A DNA stretch of 64,000 nt from Acidimicrobiia bacterium (lineage in GTDB: Bacteria; Actinomycetota; Acidimicrobiia; Spongiisociales; ZC4RG35), in assembly GCA_036555105.1 (NCBI GenBank), contig DATBMA010000114.1, positions 869-64,868 of the forward strand, in the 5' to 3' direction. Below are positions 39,311-61,971 of the stretch, piece after piece. The notes below the pieces were generated by a model. It saw nothing but the letters and a program-made list of their open reading frames with translations. It had not been told where the DNA came from and did not search any database. Position numbers and translations under genes: made by a program. Numbering within the stretch: position 1 is the stretch's first letter; each line of letters opens with the position of its first letter.

Positions 39311-40348
39311 ATGGCGAACGACTCGGAGAGGCTTCGCCTGACCCGCTTCAGCCACGGGGCCGGCTGTGCCTGCAAGCTGGGCCAAGCCGAGCTCGCCCGG
39401 ATACTGGAGCCCATCCGCGAACACCCGGCGGTGAGCCACCCGGACCTGCTGGTGGGCTTTGGGCTGGCGGACGACGCCGGGGTGTTCGATCTGGGCAACG
39501 GCACCGCCCTGGTACAGACCGTCGACTTCTTCACGCCGGTGGTGGACGAGCCGTATGAATGGGGCAGGATTGCCGCGGCCAACGCCCTCAGCGACGTTTA
39601 TGCGATGGGAGGACAGCCGCTGACTGCGCTCCAGCTGCTTGGCTGGCCGCGGGACGTGCTCTCATGGGAGACGGCCGGCGAGGTCCAGCGGGGGGGAGCT
39701 GACGTGGCCGCCAAAGCGGGCTGCACCCTGGTAGGTGGACATTCAGTCGATCTACCTGAGCCCGTCTACGGACTGGCGGTCACCGGGCTGGTGGATCCGG
39801 CCCGCATGCTGACCAATGCCGGGGCCCGGCCCGGGGACGCGCTTGTCCTCACCAAGCCGCTCGGAATCGGGATCATCACGACCGCGATCAAGCGGGAGAT
39901 CTGCCCTCCCGGCCTGGCTAGGCAGGCTATCGATCAGATGGCCACTCTCAACGAACAGGCCGCCGGCGCCGCGTTGGAGTGCGGCGCCCACGCCGCCACC
40001 GATGTGACCGGTTTCGGTCTGCTCGGGCACTTACGGGAGATGCTCCTTGCTTCAGGGGCCGCCGCCAGCATCGACGCTGGCGCGGTTCCGGTGCTGGATG
40101 GGACCTGGGACCTGCTCGCGGCCGGTGCATTCTCGGGAGGCAGCGGTCGCAATCTCGCCGCCGTCCGTCCCCATGTGGCCGGCGCCGTCGACGAACCGAC
40201 ATTGCGCGTGCTGGCGGACGCACAGACGAGTGGCGGCCTGCTGGTGGCTCTTCCGCTCGATCGGCTGGCGGAAATGCACGCACGGCTGCCGCAGGCGATC
40301 GAAGTCGGGCGGATCACTCAGGGCGATGGGACCATCGAAATCACTTGA
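39311..40348 (+). CDS. selD: Selenide, water dikinase (selenophosphate synthetase), Cys-type
   Basis: ...RLTRFSHGAGCACKLG... aligns to E. coli SelD ...RLTQYSHGAGCGCKIS..., with Cys (not Sec/TGA) at the catalytic position. The AIRS and AIRS_C domains align over the full length. Confidence 0.85.
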   Translation: MANDSERLRLTRFSHGAGCACKLGQAELARILEPIREHPAVSHPDLLVGFGLADDAGVFDLGNGTALVQTVDFFTPVVDEPYEWGRIAAANALSDVYAMGGQPLTALQLLGWPRDVLSWETAGEVQRGGADVAAKAGCTLVGGHSVDLPEPVYGLAVTGLVDPARMLTNAGARPGDALVLTKPLGIGIITTAIKREICPPGLARQAIDQMATLNEQAAGAALECGAHAATDVTGFGLLGHLREMLLASGAAASIDAGAVPVLDGTWDLLAAGAFSGGSGRNLAAVRPHVAGAVDEPTLRVLADAQTSGGLLVALPLDRLAEMHARLPQAIEVGRITQGDGTIEIT

Positions 40349-40372
40349 CCGCCAGGAGTAGCCTTCCCCTCG

Positions 40373-41260
40373 ATGAGCATATGGGAAGAACTCCTCGCCA
40401 AGCCCGGCCCCATCATCGCCGATGGGGCGATGGGGACAATGCTGATGTCGGAGGGCCTCCAGTTCGGCGACCCGCCTGAGCTTTGGAACGTGCTCTATCC
40501 GGATCGAGTGCGGGCCATACACCGCGGTTACATAGATGCCGGGTCAGACATCGTCCTCACCAACACTTTCGGGGGGACCCGCTTCCGGCTGGCCATGCAC
40601 AACCTCGAGAGCCGGGTCGACGAGCTCAACCGCACCGCCGCCATCATGTTGCGGGCCGAAGTCGATCTCTCCGGGCGGAGCGTGGTGGTGGCCGGCGACA
40701 TCGGTCCCTCCGGTCAGATCCTGGCTCCTTTGGGCACGCTCGACTACTACGAGGCCGTGGACGGATTCGCCGAACAGGCCGCTGCACTTGTGGCAGGCAG
40801 GGTCGATGTCATCTGGATCGAGACCATGTCGGCCCTGGAGGAGATGAGGGCCGCATTCGAAGGAGTGAGACGAGCTTCCCCCGACATCCCGATCATCGCC
40901 ACTATGACCTTCGATACCCGAGGTAGGACGATGATGGGGATCACACCCGAGCAGGCGGCCGTCGAGTTGCTGGCGCTCGGCGCCGCCGCCATCGGCGGCA
41001 ACTGTGGCAATGGACCCGATGAGCTACTCGGCGTGGTCGAGAAGATGCGTGAGGTGGCTCCGGACGCGCTGATCGTGGCCAAGTCGAATGTGGGGATGCC
41101 GCAGCTGATCGACGGCCGCGCCGCGTACCTCACCACTCCCGAGGACATGACCAAGTACGCATCGGAGGCCCACCACCTCGGGGCCGGGATCATCGGGGCT
41201 TGCTGCGGGTCGACCCCGACGCTGCTGGCCGACATGGCCGAGGCGCTCCGAGCAGATTGA
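40373..41260 (+). CDS. Homocysteine S-methyltransferase-domain protein (Pfam S-methyl_trans; MmuM/BHMT/MetH-Hcy-domain-like)
   Basis: 295 aa with the Zn-binding Cys motifs GGNCGNGP and GACCGSTP. It is convergent with metF across a 7 bp gap. Confidence 0.8.
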   Translation: MSIWEELLAKPGPIIADGAMGTMLMSEGLQFGDPPELWNVLYPDRVRAIHRGYIDAGSDIVLTNTFGGTRFRLAMHNLESRVDELNRTAAIMLRAEVDLSGRSVVVAGDIGPSGQILAPLGTLDYYEAVDGFAEQAAALVAGRVDVIWIETMSALEEMRAAFEGVRRASPDIPIIATMTFDTRGRTMMGITPEQAAVELLALGAAAIGGNCGNGPDELLGVVEKMREVAPDALIVAKSNVGMPQLIDGRAAYLTTPEDMTKYASEAHHLGAGIIGACCGSTPTLLADMAEALRAD

Positions 41261-41267
41261 GGGGGCT

Positions 41268-42104
41268 CTAGCCGGCCAGGCCGGTCCGCCACCTCTCTAC
41301 CGCGTCCACTTCATTGAAGGTGAACACGTGGAAGCCGGCGATGCCTAGTTCGGGGTCCACTGCCTGTGCCTCGGCCAGGCCGGATAGGATGGGATCGGGG
41401 TTGAAGCCCCCACCCTTGGCTAGCCCGCCTATCAGCCCCTGCTGCTTGGAGAGGTAGCGCATCGAGTCGCCGATCCCGATGCGGGTGGCGATCCGGGTCA
41501 GCTTTACCACTCCAACCGGGGCAGGAAGGCCAACCCGCACCGGCAGGGTGATGCCGCGGGAACGGGCTGCCCTGATCCAGCCCACGATCGCGTCGGGGTC
41601 GAAACAGAGCTGGGTGGCGACATAGGCGGCATATCGCTGCTTGGCCGCCAACGCCTCCCACAGCTTGTCCTCGGGGATATAGGCGTGACCCTCCGGGTAA
41701 CCGGGGACTCCAAGTGTGGAAGGGGCCCCTTCCAGACCGGTGAGGTCCTGGAGGAGCGAGAGCCCGTCTGGATATTCCCCTGGCTCCTGCGCATCCCCTC
41801 CCACCACGAACGCCCGGGTGATGCCGGCGGCCTGAACCCGCTCGACCACTTCGACCAGGTGGGCGTGATCGCGGGTCTGGCGGGCGGAGATGTGGGGGAC
41901 AGCATCCAATCCACGCCCTGCCAACCCCACCGCCAGGTCGATCGTGTGGTCGAGGCCCTTGCTCGGCGAGCAGGTGACCGTGACCTTCGCCGCTTGCGGT
42001 AGGTGTCCGACCTGCTCGTCGAGGTTGGAGAGGGGGATGACCTCATACAGGGGGTCCGCCAGCATCTGGCGGGCAGCAGCAGCCGCGGGCCCGGTGAGCT
42101 TCAT
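41268..42104 (-). CDS. metF: 5,10-methylenetetrahydrofolate reductase
   Basis: 278 aa of the MTHFR family (...VTCSPSKGLDHTIDL...GGDAQEPG...). Its ATG overlaps the stop of the upstream MttB-family gene (ATGA). Confidence 0.8.
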   Translation of the reverse strand: MKLTGPAAAAARQMLADPLYEVIPLSNLDEQVGHLPQAAKVTVTCSPSKGLDHTIDLAVGLAGRGLDAVPHISARQTRDHAHLVEVVERVQAAGITRAFVVGGDAQEPGEYPDGLSLLQDLTGLEGAPSTLGVPGYPEGHAYIPEDKLWEALAAKQRYAAYVATQLCFDPDAIVGWIRAARSRGITLPVRVGLPAPVGVVKLTRIATRIGIGDSMRYLSKQQGLIGGLAKGGGFNPDPILSGLAEAQAVDPELGIAGFHVFTFNEVDAVERWRTGLAG

Positions 42105-43627
42105 ACGTTGGAGTCCGGGAACGAGGCCTTGCGCTGCTCGACGAACTCGGTCAGCTCCAGCTCGGTGGCCGGATCCATCGGGGGCGCTTCGTAGTCCTCG
42201 AGGGTCTTCTTCCAAATCCGGTTGGCGCGGGCGGCGGCGTCGAGGGCTCCCTCCTCGCTCCATTGCTCGAAGCTGGAGTTGTCGGCCACCTGCGACCTCC
42301 AGAAGGCAGTCTCGAAGTTGGCGAGGGTGTGCTCGCTGCCCAGGTAGTGCTGGCCCGGCTCGTTGGCGAGGATGGCGGCTAGGGCCTGGCCGTTGTCGGA
42401 GAGGTCCACACCAGAGGCGAACGCCTCCCACCCTGCGCATTGATCGGCGTCCAGCACGAACTTCTCGTACCCGACGCAGAGCCCCCCTTCCAGCCAGCCG
42501 GCTGCATGGAGGACGAAGTTGACCCCGCCCAGCATCGTGGGCCCCATCGTGTTGGCGCTCTCGTAGGCGGCCTGAGCGTCCGGGATCTTCGATGCGCACA
42601 GTGCTCCACCCGACCTGAAGGGAACCCCGAGCCTCCTGGCCAGCTGGCCCATCACAAACAGCACCAGTGCCGGCTCGGGCGTCCCGAAGCTGGGGGCGCC
42701 GGTCTGCATCGACATCGAGGAGGCGAAGGAACCCAGCACGACCGGTGCCCCGGGCCGTACCAGCTGGGTGAAGGCCATGCCGGACAGCGCTTCGGCCAGG
42801 GTCTGGGTGGCGGTCCCGGCCACGGTCACCGGACTCATCGCCCCGGCGATGATGAACGGCGTGATGAGCGTCGCCTGATTGTTCTCGGCGTAGACCTTGG
42901 CCGCTCCGAGCATCGTGGAGTCCCAGACCAGCGGCGAGTTGGCGTTGATCAACGAGAGAATGACGGTGTTGGACTCGAGGAAGTCGGGGCCGAACAGGAT
43001 CTTGGCCATGTCGACCGTGTCTTGGGCGCGCAGCGGGTGGGTGACCGAGCCCATGAAGGGCTTGTCCGAGTACAGCATGTGGGCGAGGACCATGTCGTAG
43101 TGGCGCTTGTTGACCGGCAGGTCGACCGGCTCGCAAACGGTCCCACCCGAGTGGTGGATGTGGGGATTGGCGTAGGCGAGCTTCACGAAGTTGCGGAAGT
43201 CCTCGATGGTGCCGTAGCGACGCCCGCCGTCGAGATCGCGCACGAATGGGGAGCCGTAAGCAGGTGCGAACACGGTGTTGCGCCCCCCGATCTCGACCGA
43301 GCGAGCCGGGTTGCGAGCGCGCTGGATGAATGCAGCAGGAGCCGTGGCCTTGACCAGCTGGCGGCACAATCCACGGGGGAATCGAACCCGCTCACCGTCG
43401 ACATCCGCTCCGGCCTCCCGCCAGAGGTCGAGGGCCTCGGGTATGCCCCTGAACTCGATACCCACCTGCTCGAGGATGGTGTCGGCGTTCTCCTCGATCA
43501 GAGACAGCCCCTCCTCCGACAGCACTTCAAGGGGGGCAAGAGCGCGGGTGATGAATGGAACCGACTCGGCTATCTGGGCCGCCCGGGCTGCCATTCTTGC
43601 CTCCCGTCCCCTCCTGCGGTCGCTCAT
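42101..43627 (-). CDS. MttB-superfamily (COG5598) substrate:corrinoid methyltransferase, non-pyrrolysine type (quaternary-amine/glycine-betaine methyltransferase MtgB-like)
   Basis: 508 aa continuous ORF with no in-frame TAG. It resembles the trimethylamine methyltransferase MttB family over its full length. Its ATG overlaps the stop of the RamA-like gene (ATGA). Confidence 0.8.
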   Translation of the reverse strand: MSDRRRGREARMAARAAQIAESVPFITRALAPLEVLSEEGLSLIEENADTILEQVGIEFRGIPEALDLWREAGADVDGERVRFPRGLCRQLVKATAPAAFIQRARNPARSVEIGGRNTVFAPAYGSPFVRDLDGGRRYGTIEDFRNFVKLAYANPHIHHSGGTVCEPVDLPVNKRHYDMVLAHMLYSDKPFMGSVTHPLRAQDTVDMAKILFGPDFLESNTVILSLINANSPLVWDSTMLGAAKVYAENNQATLITPFIIAGAMSPVTVAGTATQTLAEALSGMAFTQLVRPGAPVVLGSFASSMSMQTGAPSFGTPEPALVLFVMGQLARRLGVPFRSGGALCASKIPDAQAAYESANTMGPTMLGGVNFVLHAAGWLEGGLCVGYEKFVLDADQCAGWEAFASGVDLSDNGQALAAILANEPGQHYLGSEHTLANFETAFWRSQVADNSSFEQWSEEGALDAAARANRIWKKTLEDYEAPPMDPATELELTEFVEQRKASFPDSNV

Positions 43628-45627
43628 CCGGTCCTCCCTCTGCGGCCCCTTCGGGCTCCCGTCATCTCCGCCCTGGCCGGCAGCTCGACTTCCGCCGCCA
43701 GATGGCGGTAATCGTCGATCCGGTGTGGGAATGCCATGGCGTTGACAAAGTGCTCCTGGAAGCGCGGTTCCACCGCCGTCTCGACCTTCTCAATCGTCCG
43801 CACCACCTGCTCGATCTCGGCCCGCTTGTCCCGGTTGAGCAGCGTCATCAACGCCCCGGTCCCGGCCGCATTGCCGGCGGCGCCCACCGCTTCGAGGTCG
43901 CAGTCGGGCACCAGCCCCAGCACCAGGGCGTAGAGAGGGTCGATGTGTGATCCAAAGGCGCCGGCCAGGCGGATCCGATCCACCGTGGTCGTCCCCATGT
44001 GGTCCATCAGGAGCTTGCAGCCGGCGTGGAGGGCAGCTTTGGCCAGCTGGATCGCGCGTACGTCGTTTTGGGTGATCCATATGTCGGGCTCCCCCTCCCA
44101 CAACAGGTAGGAGAAGGTTCGATCGTCACGACGGACTCGCGCTGTCCGGTCTGATTCAATGATCACACCGTCGGGGGAGATGATCCCGGCGAGGAAAAGC
44201 TCGGCGATGGCCTCGATGATCCCCGAGCCACAGATCCCGGTCGGCACCATGCTGAAGCCCGGCTCGTCCGACCAGTGGCGGTCGCCAATGGCTCTGATCC
44301 GCGGCTCCAGAGTCGTCCGATCGATGCGGACGCGCTCGATTGCACCCGGGGCTGCTCGCTGTCCCGATGAGATCTGGGCGCCCTCGAAGGCCGGCCCGGT
44401 AGGAGAGGAGGCGGCGAGGAGCCGGTGACGGTTCCCGAGCACGATCTCGGCATTGGTGCCGACATCCACGGCCAGAGTCAGCTCGTCCCGTCGATATGGC
44501 CCTTCTGCCAGCACCATCCCGGCCGCGTCCGCACCGACGTGGCCGGCGATGCACGGCAAGACGTAGATGCGGGCGGAAGGCAGCAGGTCTAGCGCGAGGT
44601 CGGCTGCCCGACGCTCCACCGCGAGGTCTGTCACCAGCGCGAAAGGGGCCCCGCCCAGCTCGATCGGATCGAATCCGAGGAAAAGGTGGTGCATGATCGG
44701 GTTGCCGACGGCAGTCATTGCCAGCACGTCATCCCGCTCCACTCCGGCCGCCTCGACCAACTCACCGATCAGGCCGTTGATGCAGTCCCGCACCGCCGCG
44801 GTCAGGTCGGCGGCTCCGCCCGGGTTCATCATCACGTAGGAGACCCGGCTCATGAGGTCCTCACCGAAGCGGATCTGCGGGTTCATGGCTCCGGCCGACG
44901 CCAGTACCTCGCCGGTGTGGAGGTCGGCCAGGTGCCCGGCCACCGTGGTGGACCCGATGTCGAAGGCGACCCCGTAGGCGTAGTCCTGGAAGCCGGGCCG
45001 GACCGAGACGATGACGCCGCCAGATCGCGCCAGAACAGGGGGATGCGGGTTGGAGACGGCGGCGGTCACCTTCCAGTCGCCGGCCCTGAGAGCAGCCTGC
45101 AGGCCGGGCAGGACGGCCGGGTCGACGTCGAGGCCGGTGAGGTCCCACTGCTGCTCGAGGGCGGCAAGCAGCCGCCTGAGGTCGGACGAAGGGTCTGCCA
45201 GGTCGGGCGCCGCCACCTCGACGTAGTGCTGGGTGATGACCGGGTCGATCTCGAGCTCGAGCGGCAGGGCTTCCTTCCTCACCACCTGGCGATGCACTTG
45301 GCTCTCGGCAGGCACATCCACCAGCAGGTCGCCTCGCAACCGGGCGGTGCAACCAAGGCGATGCCCATCTGCCAGCCCCCTGCGCTGGGCGAAGTCGAGC
45401 TCAACCGGGCCTATCGGCGACAGGTGGGCGGCTTCCGAGTGGATGCCGTGTTTCGGAAAGTCCCCTTCCATGACCTCCACCCGACAGCGGCCACATATGC
45501 CGCGGCCCCCGCACACCGAGTCCAGATCCACTCCCAGTTGGCGGGCGGCGTCGAGCAGGGTCGTTTCGTCGGGAAAGCGACCCCGCCGGCCGGAAGGGGT
45601 GAATACGAGCAAGCTCTCTCGGGTCAC
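43624..45627 (-). CDS. Corrinoid reductive activase (RamA/RACE type: N-terminal plant-type 2Fe-2S ferredoxin + ASKHA/DUF4445 ATPase)
   Basis: From the GTG (VTRESLLVFTPSG...): a ferredoxin motif CGGRGICGRCRV, then an ASKHA-fold region (FDIGSTTVAGHL...). Its GTG overlaps the stop of the MtgA-like gene (GTGA). Confidence 0.8.
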   Translation of the reverse strand: MTRESLLVFTPSGRRGRFPDETTLLDAARQLGVDLDSVCGGRGICGRCRVEVMEGDFPKHGIHSEAAHLSPIGPVELDFAQRRGLADGHRLGCTARLRGDLLVDVPAESQVHRQVVRKEALPLELEIDPVITQHYVEVAAPDLADPSSDLRRLLAALEQQWDLTGLDVDPAVLPGLQAALRAGDWKVTAAVSNPHPPVLARSGGVIVSVRPGFQDYAYGVAFDIGSTTVAGHLADLHTGEVLASAGAMNPQIRFGEDLMSRVSYVMMNPGGAADLTAAVRDCINGLIGELVEAAGVERDDVLAMTAVGNPIMHHLFLGFDPIELGGAPFALVTDLAVERRAADLALDLLPSARIYVLPCIAGHVGADAAGMVLAEGPYRRDELTLAVDVGTNAEIVLGNRHRLLAASSPTGPAFEGAQISSGQRAAPGAIERVRIDRTTLEPRIRAIGDRHWSDEPGFSMVPTGICGSGIIEAIAELFLAGIISPDGVIIESDRTARVRRDDRTFSYLLWEGEPDIWITQNDVRAIQLAKAALHAGCKLLMDHMGTTTVDRIRLAGAFGSHIDPLYALVLGLVPDCDLEAVGAAGNAAGTGALMTLLNRDKRAEIEQVVRTIEKVETAVEPRFQEHFVNAMAFPHRIDDYRHLAAEVELPARAEMTGARRGRRGRTG

Positions 45628-46526
45628 TGTCCGGCCACGGCCCGGCGGCGGGGGCGGTCCCGTCGCCCGCCTTCCGCCGGGCTTTCGACCCGGTACGCCC
45701 TGATCCAGCGGCCGCACTCGGGGTCATGACCGCTGAGGACATCCGCAGCCAGGACCGCTTGGCGGATCTCCGGCTCGATCGGGTTGGTGATGGCCGAGGT
45801 CATCCCGGCGGCGATTGCCATCGCCAGGAAGGTGGCGTTGATGCCGGCTCGATTGGGAAGGCCGAAGCTGACGTTCGAGGCCCCGCAGGTGGTGTTGACC
45901 CCGAGCTCCTCGCGGAGGCGGCGGACCAGGTGGAAGACCTGGCGACCAGCCGTTGCCATTGCCCCCACCGGCATGAGGAGGGGATCCACCACGACGTCCT
46001 CCTTGGGGATGCCGTGATCGGCGGCTGCCGAAATGATCTTGCGCGCCACCTCGAAGCGGACATCGGGATCCTCCGATATACCCGTCTCGTCGTTGGTGAT
46101 CGCAACCACCGCCGCCCCATGCCGTGCCACCAGCGGCAGCACCGCTTCGATCCTCTCGTCCTCGCCGGTGACGGAGTTGACGAGGGCCTTGCCTTGGTAG
46201 ACGGAGAGCCCGGCCTCCAGGGCTTCCACGATGGAGGAGTCGATTGACAGCGGCACGTCGGTGAGGCTTTGCACCAGCTTGACCGTCTCGGCCAGGATCG
46301 CCGGCTCGTCGGCCAGCGGGATCCCGGCGTTGACGTCGAGCATCTGGGCGCCGGCCTCGACCTGGCGAGCAACATCGGCGATGACCGTCGAGAAGTCACC
46401 CTCGGCCATCTCGGCGGCCAGCTTCTTGCGGCCGGTGGGGTTTATGCGCTCCCCGATGATCACGAAGGGCCGCTCGAACCCGATCACCACCTCTCTGGTC
46501 CCGGAGGAAACGACGGTGTTAACCAT
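45624..46526 (-). CDS. Pterin-binding methyltransferase (methylcorrinoid:tetrahydrofolate methyltransferase, MtgA/MtrH/MeTr-like)
   Basis: 300 aa from MVNTVVSSG. The signature FVIIGERINPTG is that of the pterin-binding (DHPS-like) domain found in methionine synthase, MtrH and AcsE. The 70 upstream codons in the track ORF (MRPRDFETSRPQ...) are a translation of repeat R9 and are excluded. Confidence 0.8.
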   Translation of the reverse strand: MVNTVVSSGTREVVIGFERPFVIIGERINPTGRKKLAAEMAEGDFSTVIADVARQVEAGAQMLDVNAGIPLADEPAILAETVKLVQSLTDVPLSIDSSIVEALEAGLSVYQGKALVNSVTGEDERIEAVLPLVARHGAAVVAITNDETGISEDPDVRFEVARKIISAAADHGIPKEDVVVDPLLMPVGAMATAGRQVFHLVRRLREELGVNTTCGASNVSFGLPNRAGINATFLAMAIAAGMTSAITNPIEPEIRQAVLAADVLSGHDPECGRWIRAYRVESPAEGGRRDRPRRRAVAGQ

Positions 46527-46529
46527 CTG

Positions 46530-53906: not shown

Positions 53907-55852
53907 TGGCGACAGCCACTGCCACCCCAGCCGCCCTGCCACTCAGGCGAAGCCGGACCTGGCTGTGGGTCGTGGTCGTCATTCTGTTGTTGGTGGGTGT
54001 CCAGCTCGCCTTCTCGCGAACCTCCGGATTCCCCACCGGATGGAGGCTCGGGATCGAGAACACCATCGACCAGATTCCGGGTTGGCTGCGGTCCAACCGA
54101 CGCACCCACCCGATGTTCGTCTACTTTCTCCAGCCCCTCAGTGCTGGAATCAACGGGGGGCTCGAGCTGGTCGAGTCTGTTCTCAAGGCCATTCCATGGT
54201 TCGTCTTCTGCGCCATCGCCGCCTTCATCCTTCTTCGGGCCGGCCGGGTTTGGGCGGCGCTCCTGGCGATAGTTGGTGTCCTCTACTTCGGTGTGGTGGG
54301 CCTGTGGGAGGAGGGCTTGGAGACGCTGGCGTTGATGGGTGTCGCGGTCGCCATCGCGCTCCTGATCGGGATTCCCTTAGGGATATGGGCGGCTTTCAAC
54401 CGGAGGGTCGAGCGGGCGCTACGACCGATCCTCGACAGCATGCAGGTGCTGCCGGCTTTCGTCTATTTGATACCGGTCGTCCTGCTCTTTGGCATTGCCC
54501 GGGTGCCGGCGACCATCGCCACCGTGATCTTTGCGCTCGCACCGGCTGTACGGCTCACGACCCTCGGGATCAAGCAAGTGCCGCAAGCGGTGCTGGAAGC
54601 CGCCGAGATGATGGGGACCACACGCCGCCAGAAGCTCTTCAAGGTCCAGATCCCGATCGCGATGCCAACCATCCTGGCCGCTGTCAACCAGACGATCATG
54701 CTGGCACTCGGCATTGTGATCATCGCTTCGTTGATCGGTGCGGGGGGCCTCGGCACGCAGGTCTTGAACTCCCTCCAGAGGTTCCAGGTGGGCCAGGCAT
54801 TCGAGGCGGGCATAGCTGTGGTCGTGATGGCGATCTTGCTGGACCGGCTGAGCCGTACCTTCGTGGAGCGGCCCGAGCCCGGGCAAATCCCTTGGTATCG
54901 AAGCCGGAGGGTTCTGTGGATCGGGCTGGGGATCATCGTCCTGCTGGCCTTGGCGGGGCTCGTCGCCGGAGTCCGCGAGTTCCCTGACCAGTGGCGGGTC
55001 TCGTTCGCGCGCCCGATCGACTCCGCGGTCGACTGGGCGCAGAACAACCTTTACCTGATCGGGAATACCGGCCTCGGGACCAAGGCACTCAACGAGTTCT
55101 TGAACGTGTCGATCCTCAACCCGTTGCGTGACCTGCTTACCTTTCTGGCCTGGCCCGTTCTGATCCTCTTCACGGGATTCATCTGCTGGAAGGCGGGGGG
55201 CGGGTTGCTAGCCGTCTTCGCCATGATCTCCCTATTCGTAATCGGGGTCCTCGGAATGTGGGAGCTTGCTTTGGACACTCTCACCCAAGTGCTCGTGGCA
55301 GTGGTCCTTGCCCTGGCCATCGCCATCCCAGTCGGCGTCTGGTCAGCTCGGAGCAACAGGGTGAGAACGCTGCTTACGCCACTCCTTGACACGCTTCAGA
55401 CGATTCCGAGCTTCGTCTTTCTCGTTCCGGTGATCATGCTCTTCAGCGCCGGACGGGTGCCGGGGATCATTGCCAGCGTGTTGTATGCAATCCCTCCCGG
55501 TATCCGGCTGACGGACCTCGGCCTGAGAAGCGTTCCTGCCGAGACCCTCGAGGCTGCCGAATGCTTTGGGTCAACGCCTAGGCAGATGCTGTGGAAGGTC
55601 CAAGTCCCACTGGCGATGCCGACCATCATGGCGGGGGTCAACCAGGTCGTCATGCTGGCCTTGTCGATGGTCGTGGTCGGTGGCTTGGTCGGAGGGGGTG
55701 GCCTGGGATTCGAAAGCGTGCGTGCCCTCACTCGGGGTGAGACGGCTCTCGGCGTCAAGGCCGGCTTGGCGATCGTCCTCATGGCGATGATCCTCGATCG
55801 GTTGACCCAGGCGTGGGCAGCCAGGATGCAGCCGACGCCGGCGGCGGCCTGA
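53903..55852 (+). CDS. Glycine betaine ABC transporter permease (fused tandem ProW/OpuAB domains)
   Basis: 649 aa with two homologous permease halves, each carrying an EAA-like loop (EAAEMMGTTRRQ and EAAECFGSTPRQ). Confidence 0.85.
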   Translation: MMATATATPAALPLRRSRTWLWVVVVILLLVGVQLAFSRTSGFPTGWRLGIENTIDQIPGWLRSNRRTHPMFVYFLQPLSAGINGGLELVESVLKAIPWFVFCAIAAFILLRAGRVWAALLAIVGVLYFGVVGLWEEGLETLALMGVAVAIALLIGIPLGIWAAFNRRVERALRPILDSMQVLPAFVYLIPVVLLFGIARVPATIATVIFALAPAVRLTTLGIKQVPQAVLEAAEMMGTTRRQKLFKVQIPIAMPTILAAVNQTIMLALGIVIIASLIGAGGLGTQVLNSLQRFQVGQAFEAGIAVVVMAILLDRLSRTFVERPEPGQIPWYRSRRVLWIGLGIIVLLALAGLVAGVREFPDQWRVSFARPIDSAVDWAQNNLYLIGNTGLGTKALNEFLNVSILNPLRDLLTFLAWPVLILFTGFICWKAGGGLLAVFAMISLFVIGVLGMWELALDTLTQVLVAVVLALAIAIPVGVWSARSNRVRTLLTPLLDTLQTIPSFVFLVPVIMLFSAGRVPGIIASVLYAIPPGIRLTDLGLRSVPAETLEAAECFGSTPRQMLWKVQVPLAMPTIMAGVNQVVMLALSMVVVGGLVGGGGLGFESVRALTRGETALGVKAGLAIVLMAMILDRLTQAWAARMQPTPAAA

Positions 55853-55916: not shown

Positions 55917-58421
55917 GTGAGCGATCTTCCCCAGAGCGTGCGGGTCGTCGTCATCGGGGCCGGCATCAACGGCAACTCGCTGGTCGGCCACCTGGCCGAG
56001 CTCGGCTGGAAGGACATCCTCCAGATCGACAAGGGGCCGTTGCCCAACCCGGGCGGGTCCACAGGCCATGCCTCCAACTTCATCTTCCCGGTCGACCACT
56101 CCAAGGAGATGGCGATGCTGACGCTCGACAGCCAGCGTCAGTACGCCGACATGGGGGTCAACACGGTTTCGGGCGGGATCGAGGTCGCCCGCACTGCGGA
56201 GCGCATGGAAGAGCTGCGCCGCCGTATGACCAGCGCCACCTCTTGGGGGATCGAGGCCGAGCTGATCTCGCCCAGCCAGGTCAAGGAGCTGGTGCCGTTC
56301 ATCAACCAGGACATCGTGCTCGGCGGCTTCTACACACCAAGCGTCTCCGTGGTCGACTCATTGCGGGCCGGGACCCTGTTCAGGGAACGGGCCCAGGCCC
56401 TGGAGGCCCTCACGGTCTCGCCGAACACCGAGGTGCTCGGCATCGAGGTCGAGCGGGGCCGGGTCAGAGCGGTGGTCACCGATCGTGGCCGTGTGGAGGC
56501 CGAGTACGTGATCATCGCCTGCGGGGTTTGGAGCCCGCGGCTGGCTGAAATGGCCGGCGCCACCATCCCGCTGACCCCGGCGGTCCATCAGATGATCGAC
56601 GTCGGGCCGATCCCGATCCTGCAGGAGACCGGGGGCGAGATCGCATTCCCGATCGTTCGTGACATGGACACCTTCATGTACGAACGGCAGACGGCGGGAT
56701 CGATGGAGGTGGGGTCGTACGCCCACCGCCCGATCTTCCACGATCCCGACGACATCCCCTCCCTCAAGGAGGCCCGCCTCTCGCCGACCGAGCTCCCTTT
56801 CACTGCCGATGACTTCGACCCGCAGATGGAGGACGCGCTCGAGCTGATGGGCGACATATTGGGCGGGGCCGAGATCCGATACGCCATCAACGGCCTGCTC
56901 TCGCTCACCCCGGACGGGATGCCCCTCCTGGGGGAGACGGTGGAGGTCCGCAACCTGTGGTCGGCGTCGGCCGTGTGGATCAAAGAGGGCCCGGGAGTCG
57001 GTCGGATGTTGGCCGAGTGGATGACCGACGGATACCCCGAGCTTGATCCGCACTCCTCCGACATCGCCCGCTTCTACGACTACGGCCGGACCATGCATCA
57101 CATCCGGGCGCGATGCTCGGAGCACTTCAACAAGACCTACGGGATCATCCACCCCCGAGAGCAGTGGGCCACTGACCGCAACTTCCGGCTGGCCCCTTTC
57201 CATGCCCGAACCCAGGCATTGGGCGCCGTCTACTTCCAAGCAGGTGGCTGGGAGCGTCCTCACTGGTACGAGTCGAACGCCGGCCTCGTCTCCGACTACG
57301 GCGTCGAGGATCGGCCCCACGAGTGGGACGCCCGCTGGTGGTCGCCGATCATCAACGCCGAGCATCTGGCCATGCGGGAGCGGGTGGGGATGATCGACCT
57401 CTCTCCTTTCGTCATCTTCGATCTGACCGGGCCCGGGGTCTTCGACTACGTGCAACGGATGGCGGTCAACTCACTCGACGTGGCGGTCGGGCGGTCGGTC
57501 TACACGCCGCTGCTGACGCCTCAGGGAGGGTTCAAGGCCGACCTCACGATCATGCGGCTGGGAGAGGAGCACTTCCGGGTGGTGACCGGGGCCTTCGACG
57601 GCCCCCGTGACAAGCACTGGTTCCGCAAGCACCTCCCGGAAGACGGGTCCGTGCAGTTCGTCGACAACACCGGCGCCATCTGCACCATCGGCGTTTGGGG
57701 GCCGAAGGCACGCAACTTCCTGCAATCACTCACCGGCGACGACCTCTCCGATGATGGCTTCCCATACGGGTCGGTGCGCACGGTCGGCTTCGGGCCCCTC
57801 ATCACCCGCATGTTCCGCATCTCATATGTCGGTGAGCTCGGGTGGGAGATCTACTGCCCGATGGAAGGGGGGCTCGCCCTCTGGGACATGCTGTGGGAGG
57901 CCGGAGTGGGCCATGACCTGGTGGCGGTCGGAGCGGGCGTCTACGGCACCACCGGTCGGATGGAGAAGGGCTACCGCCTATTCGGGTCCGAGCTCGACAG
58001 TGAGTACACCCCGGTCGAGGCCGGCCTGGCCCGACCAAGGGTGAAGTCGGCCGACTTCGTCGGCAAGGAGGCGTACCTGGCGGCGCGGAAGGAGGAGCCG
58101 GCTGCGGTTCTCTGCACGCTGACAGTCGAGGACCACACCTCGGCGGCGGGAATCCCTCGTTACATGACCGGGCGGGAGCCGGTCCTCACGCTCGACGGCA
58201 AGCGGATCGTCGACCGCAAGGACAGGCCCTCTTACGTGACCAGCGCCGGCTCGGGCCCCTCGGTCGGCAAGTACCTGTTGATGGCCTACCTGCCGCCCGA
58301 GCAGGCGGTGGTTGGCACCGAGCTGCGGGTCATGTACATGAACGAGCAGTTCCCGGTCCAGGTGGCGGTGGCAGGCAGCACCCCGTTGTTCGACCCCGAC
58401 GACCGGCGGATGAAGGCTTAG
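55917..58421 (+). CDS. FAD-dependent oxidoreductase with a C-terminal GcvT (aminomethyltransferase) domain: dimethylglycine/sarcosine dehydrogenase family
   Basis: 834 aa. An N-terminal DAO domain (VVVIGAGINGNSLVGHLAELG) is followed by a GCV_T folate-binding domain and a GCV_T_C domain. The architecture is that of DMGDH/SarDH/DMG oxidase. Confidence 0.85.
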   Translation: MSDLPQSVRVVVIGAGINGNSLVGHLAELGWKDILQIDKGPLPNPGGSTGHASNFIFPVDHSKEMAMLTLDSQRQYADMGVNTVSGGIEVARTAERMEELRRRMTSATSWGIEAELISPSQVKELVPFINQDIVLGGFYTPSVSVVDSLRAGTLFRERAQALEALTVSPNTEVLGIEVERGRVRAVVTDRGRVEAEYVIIACGVWSPRLAEMAGATIPLTPAVHQMIDVGPIPILQETGGEIAFPIVRDMDTFMYERQTAGSMEVGSYAHRPIFHDPDDIPSLKEARLSPTELPFTADDFDPQMEDALELMGDILGGAEIRYAINGLLSLTPDGMPLLGETVEVRNLWSASAVWIKEGPGVGRMLAEWMTDGYPELDPHSSDIARFYDYGRTMHHIRARCSEHFNKTYGIIHPREQWATDRNFRLAPFHARTQALGAVYFQAGGWERPHWYESNAGLVSDYGVEDRPHEWDARWWSPIINAEHLAMRERVGMIDLSPFVIFDLTGPGVFDYVQRMAVNSLDVAVGRSVYTPLLTPQGGFKADLTIMRLGEEHFRVVTGAFDGPRDKHWFRKHLPEDGSVQFVDNTGAICTIGVWGPKARNFLQSLTGDDLSDDGFPYGSVRTVGFGPLITRMFRISYVGELGWEIYCPMEGGLALWDMLWEAGVGHDLVAVGAGVYGTTGRMEKGYRLFGSELDSEYTPVEAGLARPRVKSADFVGKEAYLAARKEEPAAVLCTLTVEDHTSAAGIPRYMTGREPVLTLDGKRIVDRKDRPSYVTSAGSGPSVGKYLLMAYLPPEQAVVGTELRVMYMNEQFPVQVAVAGSTPLFDPDDRRMKA

Positions 58422-58423
58422 GA

Positions 58424-58474: not shown

Positions 58475-58523
58475 GCCGGGCCGCTCGGGGATCGGCCATG
58501 GGTCGTAAGCTCTGGCCGCCCCT

Positions 58524-59294
58524 ATGAGCCTGCGTGTACTCGTCTGCGTCAAGCGCGTCCCCGCGCCCGGAGCTGAAATCGTCCTCACCGATGACCGGAA
58601 GCGGCTGGACACCGAGTTCCTCGGCTTCACCACCAGCCCCCACGAGGAGTGTGCGGTGGAGGAGGCGGTAAGAATCAAAGAGAGTTCCGGCGGCACGGTC
58701 ACTGTTCTGACCCTTGGTCCCGAGGAGGCCGAAGAGCAGCTGCGTTACGCGGTGTCGGTGGGGGCCGACCAAGCCGTGCTGATCGTCAACCAGGGCGACG
58801 ACCTCGATCCGCAGGCGACGTCGAGTGCAGTCGCGGCGGCGATCCGGTCGCTCGAGGAAGCCGAGGGCCCTTTCAACCTGATCCTCTTCGGCAACGAGTC
58901 CGCGGACTCCGGCGGGTACCAGGTAGGTGTGAGAGTCGCATTCGCCCTCGGTCGGCCGATGGTCAACGGCATCAAGGGGATCGAGGTGGAGCAGGGATCG
59001 ATCACCGCCCGCCGCGCCACCGACGCGGGCTTCGAGGTGTACCGGCTGCCTATGCCGGCGGTGCTCGGAGTGAAGGAGGGCATCAACCTTCCTCGTTATC
59101 CGACGCTGACCGGTCGCCTTGCTTCCAAGAAGGTGGTGATCGAGAGACGTGAGCTCACCCCCGAGCGGGGCGGATTGGAGCTGGTCGAGCTCTCGAGGCC
59201 GGTTCAGCAGAAGGTCGACACCGTCATGCTTGGCCGGGGGGCGGATGCCGCCCCCCGGGTGGTCGACACGCTGGTCGAATTGGGAGTCTTGTGA
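58524..59294 (+). CDS. etfB: Electron transfer flavoprotein beta subunit
   Basis: MSLRVLVCVKRVP... is the canonical EtfB N-terminus. Confidence 0.9.
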   Translation: MSLRVLVCVKRVPAPGAEIVLTDDRKRLDTEFLGFTTSPHEECAVEEAVRIKESSGGTVTVLTLGPEEAEEQLRYAVSVGADQAVLIVNQGDDLDPQATSSAVAAAIRSLEEAEGPFNLILFGNESADSGGYQVGVRVAFALGRPMVNGIKGIEVEQGSITARRATDAGFEVYRLPMPAVLGVKEGINLPRYPTLTGRLASKKVVIERRELTPERGGLELVELSRPVQQKVDTVMLGRGADAAPRVVDTLVELGVL

Positions 59295-60253
59295 GCGTCC
59301 TGGTATTGGTCGATCACGACCGCGGGACCGTCACCGTCGAGACCTATGAGGCACTCAACCTCGCCCGGTCGGTCATCGCCGAAGGGGAGCCGCTCGAGGC
59401 GGCCCTGATCGGCACCGGCCTGCGAGGTCTGGCCGCCGACCTGGGCGGCAGGGGGGTGAGCAAGGTGCACCTGGTCGATGACCCGATCCTGGACGACTAC
59501 GGACCGGAGGCCTGGGGGGAGGCCCTGGCCCAGCTGGTGGTGAGCAGCGGCCCGGCTGTGGTCATCGCTCCCGGCACCGACCGCGGCAATGAGGTCATGG
59601 CTCAGATGGCAGCCCGTGCCGAGCTCCCTCTGGCCGTCAATGTTGTGGCCTACGACCGAGCGGCGGGGAACCTCACCCGTCTCCGCTGGGGAGGCAGTCT
59701 GCTGGAGAACGCGGTGCTCAACTCACCCCTCCCCTTCCTGACCGTGGCCCCACACGCATTGGACCCGGTCGAGCCAGGGTCAGGCGAGTCCGAGGCCATC
59801 GAGTTCTCGCCGCTGCTCGATGCGGGTCTGGCCCGCACCAAGGTGGTGGATCGGGTCACCCTTTCTGCCGGGGCCACCCTGGCGACCGCGCCGGTGGTGG
59901 TGAGCGGCGGCCGCGGGGTGGGTGGATCAGAGGGATTCGCGGTGCTCGAGGAGCTGGCCTCGCTGCTGGGAGGGGTGGTCGGTTGCTCGCGGGTGGTCAC
60001 CAACAACGGATGGCGGCCCCACGCCGACCAGGTCGGTCAAACCGGGACCAGGGTCGCCCCCACCCTCTACATGGCCTGCGGCATCTCCGGGGCAATCCAG
60101 CACTGGGTCGGGTGCATGGCCGCGAAGAACATCATGGCGATCAATATCGACCCCGAGGCCCCGATGGTCTCCAAGGCCGACTACGCGGTGATCGGCGACC
60201 TCCACGAGGTGCTGCCTGCCGTCGTCGCCGAGATCAAGCGCCGACAGGGCTGA
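59291..60253 (+). CDS. etfA: Electron transfer flavoprotein alpha subunit
   Basis: EtfA N-domain plus the FAD-binding C-domain (...GISGAIQHWVG...). Its start overlaps the etfB stop. Confidence 0.9.
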   Translation: MSVLVLVDHDRGTVTVETYEALNLARSVIAEGEPLEAALIGTGLRGLAADLGGRGVSKVHLVDDPILDDYGPEAWGEALAQLVVSSGPAVVIAPGTDRGNEVMAQMAARAELPLAVNVVAYDRAAGNLTRLRWGGSLLENAVLNSPLPFLTVAPHALDPVEPGSGESEAIEFSPLLDAGLARTKVVDRVTLSAGATLATAPVVVSGGRGVGGSEGFAVLEELASLLGGVVGCSRVVTNNGWRPHADQVGQTGTRVAPTLYMACGISGAIQHWVGCMAAKNIMAINIDPEAPMVSKADYAVIGDLHEVLPAVVAEIKRRQG

Positions 60254-60273
60254 AGCAGAGGAGAATCACCGAC

Positions 60274-61971
60274 ATGGCCTTTCCCACCGATCTCGAGATC
60301 GCACGCCGCGCGGAGTTGAAGCCGATCGCCGAGATCGCGATGGGGATGGGGATACCAGGCGAGCACCTGGTCCCCTACGGGTCCGGCGTCGCCAAGGTCA
60401 GGTTGGAGGCAGTGGAGGCGATGTCCGACCGCCCGGCCGCCAAGTACGTGGTGGTCACCGCCATCACTCCCACCCCGCTGGGTGAGGGCAAGACCACCAC
60501 CACCGTCGGGCTGGGCCAGGCCTTTCGCCACGTCGGCATGGAGGCCACCGTCGCCATCCGCCAGCCGTCGATGGGCCCCACCTTCGGGATCAAGGGAGGG
60601 GCCGCCGGGGGCGGCTTCAGCCAGGTGGTCCCGATGGAGCTGCTCAACCTCCACCTCACAGGTGACATGCATGCAGTGACCGCTGCCCACAACCTGCTGG
60701 CCGCGGTCATCGACAACCATCTCTTCCAGGGCAACCAGCTCTCGATCGTGCGCGACGATGTGACCTGGCGGCGGGTGTTGGATGTGAACGACCGCTCCCT
60801 TCGCAACGTCGTCATCGGGCTGGGCGCCAAGGCGGACGGGGTACCCCGTCAGACCGGCTTCGACATCACCGCTGCCTCCGAGGTGATGGCCATCCTGGCC
60901 CTCTCGACCTCCCTGCAGGACATGCGGGCGCGACTGGGCCGCATCGTCATCGGGGTCGACCGGCGGGGCGAGACCATCACCGCCGAAGACCTCAGGGGGG
61001 CCGGGGCCATGGCGGTGATCATGCGGGAGGCGATAAAGCCCAACCTGATGCAGACCCTCGAGAACACCCCGGTCCTGGTGCACGCCGGGCCTTTTGGCAA
61101 CATCGCCCACGGGAACTCATCCGTGGTGGCCGACCTGATAGGCATCAGGTCTGGCGACTTCCTCGTCACCGAGGCCGGGTTCGGGGCCGACATGGGGGCG
61201 GAGCGCTTCTTCAACATCAAGTGCCGCAACTCGGGCCTGGCCCCCGATGCCGCAGTGGTGGTGGCGACGGTGCGAGGGCTCAAGGCCCACTCTGGCAACC
61301 ACCGGATCATCGCAGGCAGGCCGCTGCCCGAGGCATTGCTGGTGGAGAACCCGGACGAGGTGCACATGGGAGGGGAGAACCTCGCCAAGCAGATCGACAA
61401 CGTCCGGCTGCACGGTGTGACTCCGGTGGTGGCGATCAACGCTTTCCCGGATGACCACCCCTCCGAGCACGAGGCGATCAAGCAGATCGCGGCTGAGGCC
61501 GGGGCGAGGGTGGCGGTCTCGACCCACTTCGCCGAGGGCGGGAAGGGGGCGGCCGAGCTGGCCGAGGCGGTGGCGGAGGCAGCGGCCGAGCCCTCCGAGT
61601 TCAAGATGCTCTACCCGGACACGGCCACGCTGCGGGAGAAGGTCGAGGCCGTTGCCACCAAGGTCTACGGGGCGGCCAAGGTCCGTTACGACTTGGAGGC
61701 GGCGCGGCGGATCGACTACTACCAACAGAAAGGGTTCGGGCACCTACCGGTCTGTATCGCCAAGACCCATCTTTCGATCTCGTCGGATGCAACTTTGAAG
61801 GGCGCACCGACGGGTTGGACGTTGCCGGTGCGGGAGGTGAGGGCCTCGGTAGGGGCGGGGTTCATCTATCCCATCTGCGGGGACATGCGCACCATGCCAG
61901 GGCTGTCCGCAACGCCGGCGGCCTTCTCGATCGACGTCGACGAGTTCGGGGAGATCGTCGGGCTCAGCTAG
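60274..61971 (+). CDS. fhs: Formate--tetrahydrofolate ligase
   Basis: PTPLGEGKTTTTVGL P-loop and full-length FTHFS similarity. An AGAGGAG Shine-Dalgarno lies 10 nt upstream of the ATG at 60274. Confidence 0.9.
   Translation: MAFPTDLEIARRAELKPIAEIAMGMGIPGEHLVPYGSGVAKVRLEAVEAMSDRPAAKYVVVTAITPTPLGEGKTTTTVGLGQAFRHVGMEATVAIRQPSMGPTFGIKGGAAGGGFSQVVPMELLNLHLTGDMHAVTAAHNLLAAVIDNHLFQGNQLSIVRDDVTWRRVLDVNDRSLRNVVIGLGAKADGVPRQTGFDITAASEVMAILALSTSLQDMRARLGRIVIGVDRRGETITAEDLRGAGAMAVIMREAIKPNLMQTLENTPVLVHAGPFGNIAHGNSSVVADLIGIRSGDFLVTEAGFGADMGAERFFNIKCRNSGLAPDAAVVVATVRGLKAHSGNHRIIAGRPLPEALLVENPDEVHMGGENLAKQIDNVRLHGVTPVVAINAFPDDHPSEHEAIKQIAAEAGARVAVSTHFAEGGKGAAELAEAVAEAAAEPSEFKMLYPDTATLREKVEAVATKVYGAAKVRYDLEAARRIDYYQQKGFGHLPVCIAKTHLSISSDATLKGAPTGWTLPVREVRASVGAGFIYPICGDMRTMPGLSATPAAFSIDVDEFGEIVGLS

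Follow-up and report, generated by a model that had tools for sequence, protein, structure and literature searches.

The contig DATBMA010000114.1 of an uncultured Acidimicrobiia bacterium (assembly GCA_036555105.1) carries, within the 64,000 nucleotides analysed here (positions 869 to 64,868, hereafter the window), a cluster of genes predicted to act on quaternary amines. The cluster spans 40373-61971 of the window (21.6 kb) and comprises 19 pathway genes distributed over at least five transcription units on both strands (Table 1). Its core is a seven-gene mtg operon encoding a corrinoid-dependent methyltransferase machinery. Around it lie a homocysteine methyltransferase-like gene (mtgE), an iclR-family regulator, a betB gene paired with a short-chain dehydrogenase/reductase (SDR) gene, an ATP-binding cassette (ABC) importer, a gene of the dimethylglycine dehydrogenase (DMGDH) family, the electron-transferring flavoprotein (ETF) genes etfBA, and fhs. 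On the observed gene content, orthology, synteny, motif conservation and operator co-occurrence, the region is very likely a choline and glycine betaine catabolic cluster of an aerobic member of the Acidimicrobiia, built on the cobalamin-dependent MtgBCD(E) system. A first-pass annotation of this DNA had already proposed a single quaternary-amine pathway. Pfam and NCBIfam place all the gene families that it named where it had put them, and its single-pathway logic is backed by family assignments, structure-database matches, synteny and the literature.

The operon runs on the minus strand from 48243 to 41268 in the order mtgC, DUF1638 gene, PF13769 gene, mtgD, ramA, mtgB and metF2. Five of its six junctions are overlaps (ATGA or GTGA, and 8 nt at one) or a 1-nt gap, the ATG of metF2 for instance overlapping the mtgB stop codon as ATGA, and the remaining one, between the PF13769 gene and mtgD, is a gap of 77 nt. 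The seven genes are an operon with translational coupling. Together with mtgE, they supply an MttB-family enzyme, a stand-alone MtgC with a DxHxxG motif (at residue 113), MtgD, a MetH-type MtgE, and a RamA-like activase with a DUF1638 protein. Identities to the products of the co-localised Sinorhizobium meliloti cluster reach 80% for MtgC, 66% for MtgB, 64% for MtgD, 58% for RamA, 52% for DUF1638 and 51% for the PF13769 protein. By its sequences, this core is the aerobic MtgBCD(E) system of Mausz et al. (2025), a known pathway of which the window provides a new example.

In Ruegeria pomeroyi, the MttB-family enzyme MtgB, a RamA-like protein, a DUF1638 protein and MetF2 are induced on betaine, choline and carnitine, and MtgC and MtgD are required for growth on glycine betaine as well as for methionine synthesis, while MtgE (formerly Bhmt in S. 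meliloti) completes the split methionine synthase (PMC12478193). Price et al. (2018) described the split synthase in Phaeobacter (P. inhibens), together with RamA-like and DUF1638 reactivation genes (PMC5764234). This literature (PMC12478193) and the S. meliloti identities of 51-80% uphold the earlier proposal that corrinoid-dependent demethylation by an MttB-type enzyme replaces GbcAB. As in the aerobic systems already described, MtgB, MtgC, MtgD, MtgE, the RamA-like activase, the DUF1638 protein and a MetF paralogue are separate proteins, with a predicted dual role. Some differences stand out. The described systems belong to proteobacteria (Ruegeria, Phaeobacter, Sinorhizobium), whereas the host of the window belongs to the Acidimicrobiia (Actinomycetota). 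The genes that are scattered in R. pomeroyi form here one tight seven-gene operon. The window holds a single methylenetetrahydrofolate reductase (MTHFR) resembling S6MTHFR, whereas S. meliloti has an unrelated MetF together with a MetV-like pair, which yielded no BLAST match. The IclR regulator with its operator, the PF13769 gene, the adjacent betB-SDR pair, the importer and the dmgdh-etfBA-fhs genes are in the window and not in Mausz et al. (PMC12478193). Additions to the prior literature are thus the compact actinobacterial layout, the IclR operator, a near-universal PF13769 gene, a MetF2 outside type 4 and the SDR-betB module.

Table 1. Features of the cluster and of its surroundings, in window coordinates. 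Scores are in bits.
Feature	Coordinates	Strand	Description and evidence
Membrane Fe-S/CCG protein	12189-14492	+	Nitrate-reductase-gamma-like N-terminus, 4Fe-4S dicluster, two CCG domains
selD	39311-40348	+	Selenide, water dikinase SelD; 393 (cut-off 125); outside the pathway
mtgE	40373-41260	+	Homocysteine-binding module of split cobalamin-dependent methionine synthase, 295 aa
metF2	41268-42104	-	Divergent MTHFR-like protein, 278 aa; PF02219 weak, 30.7
mtgB	42101-43627	-	Non-pyrrolysine MttB-superfamily quaternary amine:corrinoid methyltransferase, 508 aa; PF06253 754
ramA	43624-45627	-	RACo/RamA-type ATP-dependent reductive activase with N-terminal 2Fe-2S domain; Fer2 + RACo domains
mtgD	45624-46526	-	Pterin-binding methyl-tetrahydrofolate:corrinoid methyltransferase, 300 aa; PF00809 107
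PF13769 gene	46604-46900	-	PF13769 ('Virulence_fact') accessory protein, 98 aa; PF13769 76.5
DUF1638 gene	46893-47540	-	DUF1638 protein, 215 aa; PF07796 98
mtgC	47542-48243	-	Corrinoid (cobalamin-binding) protein, 233 aa; B12-binding_2 (PF02607) + B12-binding (PF02310)
Operator	48262-48296		Double 17-bp palindrome, GTTCC-N7-GGAAC + imperfect copy, between mtgC and iclR
iclR	48269-49060	+	IclR-family regulator, 263 aa; HTH_IclR + IclR_C; divergent from mtgC
Small hydrophobic ORF	49063-49407	-	About 114 aa; third-position GC 0.83; also called on independent contigs
betB	49478-50932	+	Betaine-aldehyde dehydrogenase, 484 aa; NF009725 801 (cut-off 593)
SDR gene	50932-51762	+	SDR-family dehydrogenase, 276 aa, candidate NAD(P)-dependent choline dehydrogenase; adh_short
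Binding-protein gene	51863-52798	-	Substrate-binding lipoprotein, OpuAC fold, TmoX/DmpX branch; PF04069 152
proV	52866-53906	+	ProV-type ABC ATPase; TIGR01186 (betaine/proline/choline family) 359 (cut-off 327)
Permease gene	53903-55852	+	Fused double ProW-type permease, 649 aa; two BPD_transp_1 domains
dmgdh	55917-58421	+	Dimethylglycine dehydrogenase/oxidase family, 834 aa; DAO + FAO_M + GCV_T + GCV_T_C
etfB	58524-59294	+	ETF domain
etfA	59291-60253	+	ETF_alpha domain
fhs	60274-61971	+	Formate-tetrahydrofolate ligase; FTHFS 819

The product of mtgB, an uninterrupted open reading frame (ORF), finds its best structural match in 4YYC, the MttB homologue of the S. meliloti cluster (717 bits), and scores 380 bits against D. 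hafniense MtgB but only 94 bits against true MttB. The glycine betaine ligands of D. hafniense MtgB, identified by mutagenesis and a ligand-bound structure, are Y97, R312, H348 and F356 (PMC13080624). With the numbering offset taken from how far apart R, H and F stand in the MtgB alignment, Y124, R338 and H374 of the window protein align with the first three and G382 with F356, W378 lying four residues earlier, and 4YYC displays the same ligand-site pattern. This makes the site compatible with glycine betaine, though not proof of it. Genomic context is the stronger argument: since BetB, predicted to make glycine betaine, and the DMGDH-family enzyme, predicted to use the product, are encoded on the flanks of the operon, MtgB is probably specific for glycine betaine. 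The anaerobic MtgABC system of D. hafniense (2QNE, 9YCE) shares the three-component logic, the MttB-family TIM barrel and the Y97/R312/H348 set. It is nevertheless more distant than the aerobic clade, F356 is replaced in the window protein, the D. hafniense corrinoid protein belongs to another lineage according to Mausz et al. (PMC12478193), and the window system occurs in an aerobe alongside DMGDH and ETF.

Alternatively, the corrinoid machine could be real and its MttB-type enzyme act on another quaternary amine, such as proline betaine, carnitine, gamma-butyrobetaine, choline itself or a compound of the trimethylamine (TMA) type, with betB and DMGDH forming a parallel branch. The MttB superfamily does include other specificities (MtpB, MtcB, MtyB, MthB), with up to seven paralogues in aerobes, the aromatic ligand F356 is not kept, the binding protein of the importer is nearest to TmoX, a binder of trimethylamine N-oxide (TMAO) and choline, and orthologues of the SDR also adjoin Tdm/Tmm and Rieske oxygenase genes. 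This alternative is considered unlikely in view of the three conserved ligands, the far higher score to a proven MtgB than to MttB, the orthology with the MttB homologue that the S. meliloti mtg cluster encodes, the presence of BetB in the cluster, and the DMGDH gene that directly follows mtgB in several loci.

Conservation of the core was assessed on 83 loci with an MtgB homologue (loci are designated here by L and a number). In 56 of them, mtgC and mtgD lie near mtgB, and these core loci include ramA in 55 cases, the PF13769 gene in 51, the DUF1638 gene in 47 and metF2 in 39, the full seven-gene order of the window being found in 25 loci. The closest MtgB homologues (67-80% identity) come from metagenome-assembled genomes (MAGs) of Acidimicrobiia, Gaiellales, Thermoleophilia, Chloroflexota (Limnocylindrales) and several proteobacterial groups. 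The same core operon is present in MAGs labelled Gaiellales, Thermoleophilia, Chloroflexota (Limnocylindrales) and Gammaproteobacteria, some of them with soil or sediment labels. In four Acidimicrobiales loci (L057, L063, L065, L073), a DMGDH gene (69-72% identity) and etfBA come directly after mtgB, and in two of these (L063, L065) an fhs gene 74% identical to that of the window stands beside the mtg operon. Within the stretch read, which ends at ramA, L168 carries all the modules of the window except fhs in a reordered arrangement: S-methyl_trans, OpuAC, ABC ATPase, fused permease, Aldedh, SDR, ETF and DMGDH, then the corrinoid protein, a DUF1638-PF13769 fusion, Pterin_bind and RACo. Because the combination recurs in rearranged order, the grouping of the modules is selected rather than accidental. 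That the modules are independent operons brought together by chance, with no common pathway, could be argued from the number of transcription units on both strands, which share no operator, and from the unrelated border genes, selD and two genes of the GT87 glycosyltransferase family. With the combination recurring in other orders in L168, L169, L085, L084 and the Acidimicrobiales loci, this idea is scarcely credible.

The remaining parts of the core can be assigned individually. MtgE, encoded convergently with metF2 across a 7-nt gap, matches PF02574 (217 bits) and stays just below the cut-off of NF005718, 'betaine--homocysteine S-methyltransferase' (332.7 versus 338 bits). Its best match in the PDB is the homocysteine domain of T. 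maritima MetH (185 bits), compared with 72 bits for human betaine-homocysteine methyltransferase, and the zinc-ligand cysteines are all present (C211, C277, C278). In L001, mtgE occupies an equal convergent position with 80% identity. The homocysteine methyltransferase-domain protein seen as embedded in the region by the first-pass annotation is thus MtgE, which would share MtgC and MtgD in a split methionine synthase. The best NCBIfam match of MtgC is the glycine-betaine-specific corrinoid protein MtgC, at 212 bits and below the cut-off of 370, and MtgD exceeds that of NF005719 (360 versus 259 bits), with an independent call of 300 aa on L173. RamA combines Fer2 with RACo linker, middle and C-terminal domains and scores 389 bits as AcsV-like. 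What had been summarised as an "MttB module" is present, and it resolves further into the RACo/RamA activase, the DUF1638 and PF13769 proteins and the pterin-binding MtgD.

Two small proteins of the operon deserve separate mention. The DUF1638 family is genetically tied to B12 reactivation and methionine synthesis in Phaeobacter (PMC5764234). Across 43 sequences, C25, C48, C85, C108, H54 and H107 are invariant, which suggests a metal or Fe-S site, and the protein may be a metal or Fe-S protein taking part in corrinoid reactivation. Its AlphaFold model is confident (pLDDT 84) and has no significant neighbour among PDB structures. The PF13769 protein is not mentioned in the paper defining the MtgBCD(E) system (PMC12478193); its gene is fused to that of DUF1638 in L168 and has its counterpart in the S. 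meliloti cluster.

The same core could in principle be a housekeeping split methionine synthase, with betB, the SDR and the transporter serving osmoprotection through synthesis and accumulation of betaine, and no catabolic pathway at all. MtgE is indeed MetH-like, and the IclR operator is found on the mtg operon only. Moreover, betB together with a choline transporter is a textbook combination for osmoprotection. This explanation is nonetheless very improbable: mtgB and metF2 are translationally coupled in the operon, whereas a methionine synthase needs neither of them, nor the oxidation of methyl-tetrahydrofolate (methyl-THF). The dmgdh-etfBA-fhs genes, which have no role in osmoprotection, recur beside the operon in many genomes, and the R. 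pomeroyi core is needed for betaine catabolism even with methionine supplied (PMC12478193).

As for regulation, the interval between mtgC and iclR contains a perfect palindrome at 48262-48278, which has no other perfect copy in the window, and then, at 48280-48296, a second, imperfect box. The first ATG of iclR lies inside the palindrome, and an independent gene call agrees with the length of the protein. A divergent IclR orthologue (at least 45% identity) adjoins mtgC in 24 loci, the window counted, and 23 of these have the palindrome, with at most one mismatch, upstream of mtgC, compared with only 1 of the 33 loci devoid of such an orthologue. The second box is found in 17 of the 24 loci having a copy, and the palindrome is conserved across Actinomycetota and Chloroflexota loci with a divergent IclR. 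Because the operator is conserved together with the divergent IclR and is confined to mtgC/iclR, this regulator very probably controls the mtg operon and its own gene.

Downstream of iclR, the choline module starts with betB, whose start is fixed by homology and by an independent gene call. Its product also passes the TIGR01804 cut-off (698 versus 669 bits), so that both curated thresholds for betaine-aldehyde dehydrogenase support the name given earlier. The start of the SDR gene overlaps the betB stop codon by 1 nt. The SDR reaches no curated NCBIfam cut-off, and its orthologues are unusually conserved, with 67-83% identity across Acidimicrobiia, Kiloniellales and Acidiferrobacterales. The gene directly follows a betB-like gene in nine loci (the window, L084, L085, L086, L093, L095, L097, L168 and L169) and a betaine/carnitine/choline transporter (BCCT) gene in three (L096, L102, L104), and in L170 it adjoins a choline sulfatase, GbdR-like regulators and an MttB gene. 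Indeed, the orthologues always stand among genes for quaternary or methylated amines, including TmoX-like ABC genes.

Absences were assessed within the window by Pfam on 64 ORFs judged likely genes from coding-type third-position GC or from length. No gene for a glucose-methanol-choline (GMC) family oxidoreductase (BetA), a Rieske oxygenase (GbcA) or a sarcosine oxidase was found, and a tblastn search with a BetA-like GMC protein as query gave no match in the window, in line with the absence of betA and gbcAB noted before. In 12 other MtgB loci, the mtg operon has a BetA-like GMC gene at its side; the SDR loci and the window have none. The suggestion that the SDR replaces BetA is strengthened by synteny and by this complementary distribution, and it keeps the rank of a hypothesis. 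A role as BetA-independent choline dehydrogenase is plausible on these grounds. No description of an SDR-type choline dehydrogenase was found in the literature searched. That the SDR founds an undescribed family of NAD(P)-dependent choline dehydrogenases, within a complete choline-to-sarcosine regulon free of BetA and GbcAB, is a tentative proposal with somewhat less than even chances.

Other identities of the SDR were considered. It was rejected as a 3-hydroxybutyrate or carnitine dehydrogenase, the carboxylate-binding residues being absent and the scores lying below the cut-offs (best NCBIfam score for 3-hydroxybutyrate dehydrogenase, 205.6 versus 258). T112, A162 and S170 occupy the positions of Q94, H144 and K152, the carboxylate-binding residues of the P. 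fragi 3-hydroxybutyrate dehydrogenase.

Two further settings of SDR homologues were recorded. In a marine-type locus of 55% GC (L089, 7433-12374), the SDR gene lies between genes for a TMAO demethylase (DUF1989 + GCV_T) and a TMA monooxygenase resembling flavin-containing monooxygenases, a TMA/TMAO setting that is unexplained if the SDR is a choline dehydrogenase only. On S. meliloti pSymB (L175, 3160-9841), a homologue is flanked on one side by acetone-carboxylase-like (hydantoinase-family) genes and on the other by the gene of a choline-type ABC binding protein, and this locus may represent an undescribed pathway for quaternary-amine ketones or alcohols.

The importer consists of a binding-protein gene, alone on the minus strand, followed by the ATPase and permease genes on the opposite one. 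The binding protein possesses a lipoprotein-type signal sequence and matches TmoX (4XZ6, 129 bits) better than DmpX (7YLE, 79 bits) or OpuAC, ProX and ChoX (at most 41 bits). An ABC importer is hence present, as had been announced under the name OpuA/ProVWX, with a binding protein closer to TmoX than to OpuAC or ProX. DmpX is a binder of dimethylsulfoniopropionate, whereas TmoX binds TMAO and choline, its Glu131 forming a hydrogen bond with the TMAO oxygen (PMC8918994). In common with TmoXWV of Ruegeria pomeroyi, the window protein keeps the four-Trp aromatic box, with Tyr at the F220 position. The TMAO-binding E131 has become Ile116 and F106 a Val (TmoX residues, PMC8918994), and the permease is a fused double ProW. 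A TMAO-specific TmoX was rejected on the loss of Glu131. A trimethylammonium compound, but not TMAO, is the probable ligand, and choline is the simplest guess from the neighbouring genes. The permease matches a choline permease model over two stretches (502 bits), and the same fusion exists in L168 (642 aa) and L169 (638 aa).

The genes proV, permease, dmgdh, etfB, etfA and fhs are co-directional, with short gaps or overlaps. The DMGDH-family protein scores highest against the dimethylglycine oxidase of Arthrobacter (A. globiformis, 526 bits), ahead of mammalian DMGDH (290 bits). All four domains of the FAD/GcvT-type step that had been foreseen are present, and no sarcosine-specific gene accompanies them in the window. 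The enzyme is predicted to act on dimethylglycine, to release methylene-THF and to pass electrons to ETF. The etfB and etfA genes overlap by 4 nt, and their adjacency to dmgdh recurs (window, L084, L085, L168, L169). At a distance of 44 kb from these genes, the window also encodes a membrane Fe-S/CCG protein. In several Gaiellales loci (L003, L010, L024, L026, L033, L046), the mtg operon has at its side etfBA and, after them, a gene whose product is 43-46% identical to this protein. The window protein is a candidate ETF:quinone oxidoreductase, presumably analogous to mycobacterial EtfD.

For one-carbon (C1) units, both MetF and Fhs are present as proposed before, although this MetF is divergent and neither FolD nor PurU is encoded in the window. 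Fhs passes the NF010030 cut-off (791 versus 652 bits), and its ATG at 60274 is preceded by GGAG. Among PDB entries, MetF2 is closest to S6MTHFR (7XG9, 107 bits), the other listed MTHFR entries giving 19-32 bits. S6MTHFR, from Sphingobium lignivorans SYK-6, is the founding type 4 MTHFR and oxidises demethylase-derived methyl-THF without using NADH (PMC11868366). Type 4 enzymes and MetF2 have in common their genomic pairing with a THF-dependent demethylase. MetF2 keeps the signature residues P49 and F269, whereas five of the seven checked are changed (L48S, R78Q, F215I, C219I, P268T); membership of type 4 was rejected on this basis, type 4 still being the nearest relative. Homologues of 38-45% identity occur on a Halostagnicola megaplasmid, next to folD, purU and an IclR gene, and in Rhodococcus opacus, next to a LigM-like aminomethyltransferase gene and purU. 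Because of these neighbours, a role of MetF2 in C1 oxidation is proposed, with methyl-THF converted into methylene-THF, and they point to a wider clade of demethylase-coupled MTHFRs without the published type 4 motifs. On the Halostagnicola larsenii plasmid (L171, 2273-12002), the MetF2-like gene also lies beside folate-synthesis genes; its homologue on R. opacus pR1CP1 is located at L172, 9956-13641, and these two show 40-45% identity to MetF2.

The following route is put together from sequence; the substrates, the SDR reaction, the role of the regulator and the direction in which MetF2 and Fhs work are all inferred from it. The importer, made of the TmoX-like binder, ProV and the fused double permease, would take up a trimethylammonium compound, most likely choline. 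The SDR would oxidise choline to betaine aldehyde, and BetB, by its family-level assignment, would convert the aldehyde into glycine betaine. MtgB would move a single methyl group of glycine betaine onto the Co(I) of MtgC, leaving dimethylglycine. The methyl group would then be passed by MtgD to THF, or by MtgE to homocysteine to give methionine, so that the same core would double as a split methionine synthase. RamA would reactivate oxidised Co(II), assisted by DUF1638 and perhaps also by the PF13769 protein, and MetF2 would convert methyl-THF into methylene-THF. The DMGDH-family flavoenzyme would demethylate dimethylglycine, and possibly sarcosine, with release of methylene-THF and transfer of electrons to EtfAB, from which they would probably reach the membrane Fe-S/CCG oxidoreductase. 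Once FolD (encoded elsewhere) has acted, Fhs would release formate with a gain of ATP. The seven-gene mtg operon would be controlled by the divergent IclR through the double palindromic operator.

The canonical aerobic route, known from Pseudomonas and Chromohalobacter, uses BetA/BetB, the Rieske-type GbcAB, DgcAB or DMGDH, and SoxBDAG. The chemistry from choline through betaine, dimethylglycine and sarcosine to glycine is alike, as are the BetB and DMGDH-type steps. However, the window is devoid of BetA, GbcAB and Sox genes, and choline oxidation is assigned to the SDR. Furthermore, the first demethylation would keep the methyl group on THF, whereas the canonical route releases it as formaldehyde.

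Several points weigh against this choline and betaine route. The knockouts made in R. pomeroyi were those of mtgC and mtgD rather than of an mtgB, and related genomes hold up to seven MttB paralogues (PMC12478193). F356 of D. hafniense MtgB corresponds to G382 in the window protein, and only W378, four residues earlier, could substitute for it. The action of the SDR on choline is pure inference, and the S. meliloti pSymB homologue, 52% identical, adjoins acetone-carboxylase-like genes. MetF2 departs from most of the type 4 signature, and the direction proposed for it is drawn from context. The operator data tie IclR to mtgC/iclR and not to the betB-SDR, transporter and dmgdh units, as the intergenic regions elsewhere in the cluster, those before betB, the transporter genes and dmgdh included, contain no further copy. 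Finally, no gene for a sarcosine-specific enzyme, FolD, PurU, GlyA or glycine cleavage was detected in the window among the 64 ORFs.

Genes were picked on third-position GC and ORF length, then checked with Pfam and NCBIfam. The families recovered across it are S-methyl_trans, MTHFR (weak), MTTB, RACo, Pterin_bind, DUF1638, B12-binding, IclR, Aldedh, adh_short, OpuAC, ABC_tran, two BPD_transp_1, DAO+FAO_M+GCV_T, ETF beta and alpha, and FTHFS. For 10 of 12 genes, the boundaries match independent calls on two Joint Genome Institute (JGI) contigs with the same sequence. The calls differ for ramA and mtgB, for which the longer starts are preferred because homology and the Fer2 domain reach further upstream; the long ramA start is also supported by the GTGA overlap with the mtgD stop codon and by homology from ORF residue 34. 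The earlier span started at 39311, which is the start of selD, a gene unrelated to betaine and 24 nt away from mtgE, so the cluster begins at 40373. Its right border is formed by the two GT87 genes, consistent with an actinobacterium. The small hydrophobic ORF between iclR and betB has no Pfam match.

If "island" was meant as acquired DNA, the term does not hold. A horizontally acquired island was rejected, as base composition bears no sign of horizontal transfer: the window has a G+C content of about 66%, the cluster region (0.62-0.68) resembles the remainder, and GC is uniform apart from a slight dip across the transporter genes. Megablast against plasmids gave only partial matches of 71-81% identity.

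Selenium-utilisation genes recur beside the cluster, selA/selB adjoining the DMGDH gene in L085 (15045-16831) and L169 (16387-18831). The window was scanned for ORFs keeping a coding signal across an in-frame TGA; no selenoprotein candidate was found, only two adjacent same-frame genes coming up. Neither a tRNA, including tRNA-Sec, nor a riboswitch or other RNA (Rfam, gathering thresholds) was found in the window. A CoxSLM-like molybdenum hydroxylase cluster at 16424-23422 on the plus strand, apparently unrelated to the betaine genes, encodes a 2Fe-2S subunit, a molybdenum cofactor subunit, a FAD subunit, an AAA ATPase, a CoxE-like VWA protein and XdhC. Gaiella occulta (L003) has a comparable set close to its mtg operon.

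It was not until 2025 that B12-dependent demethylation of glycine betaine was recognised in aerobes, and the organisms concerned were all marine proteobacteria. The soil- and sediment-labelled MAGs that carry the operon suggest that B12-dependent osmolyte catabolism reaches beyond the ocean, and the package of the Acidimicrobiia would combine the mtg machinery with uptake, the oxidation of choline and of dimethylglycine, electron transfer and C1 disposal. Experimental handles are offered by the SDR as a candidate choline dehydrogenase independent of BetA, by IclR as a candidate regulator whose operator is defined, and by two conserved accessory proteins, DUF1638 and PF13769, with candidate roles in corrinoid reactivation. 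If the tentative proposal on the SDR holds true, this family would take the place of the flavoprotein BetA in many uncultured members of the Actinomycetota, Alphaproteobacteria and Gammaproteobacteria and could act more broadly on hydroxylated quaternary amines. The SDR, the IclR double operator, PF13769 and DUF1638 with its four invariant cysteines would then belong to a self-contained regulon.

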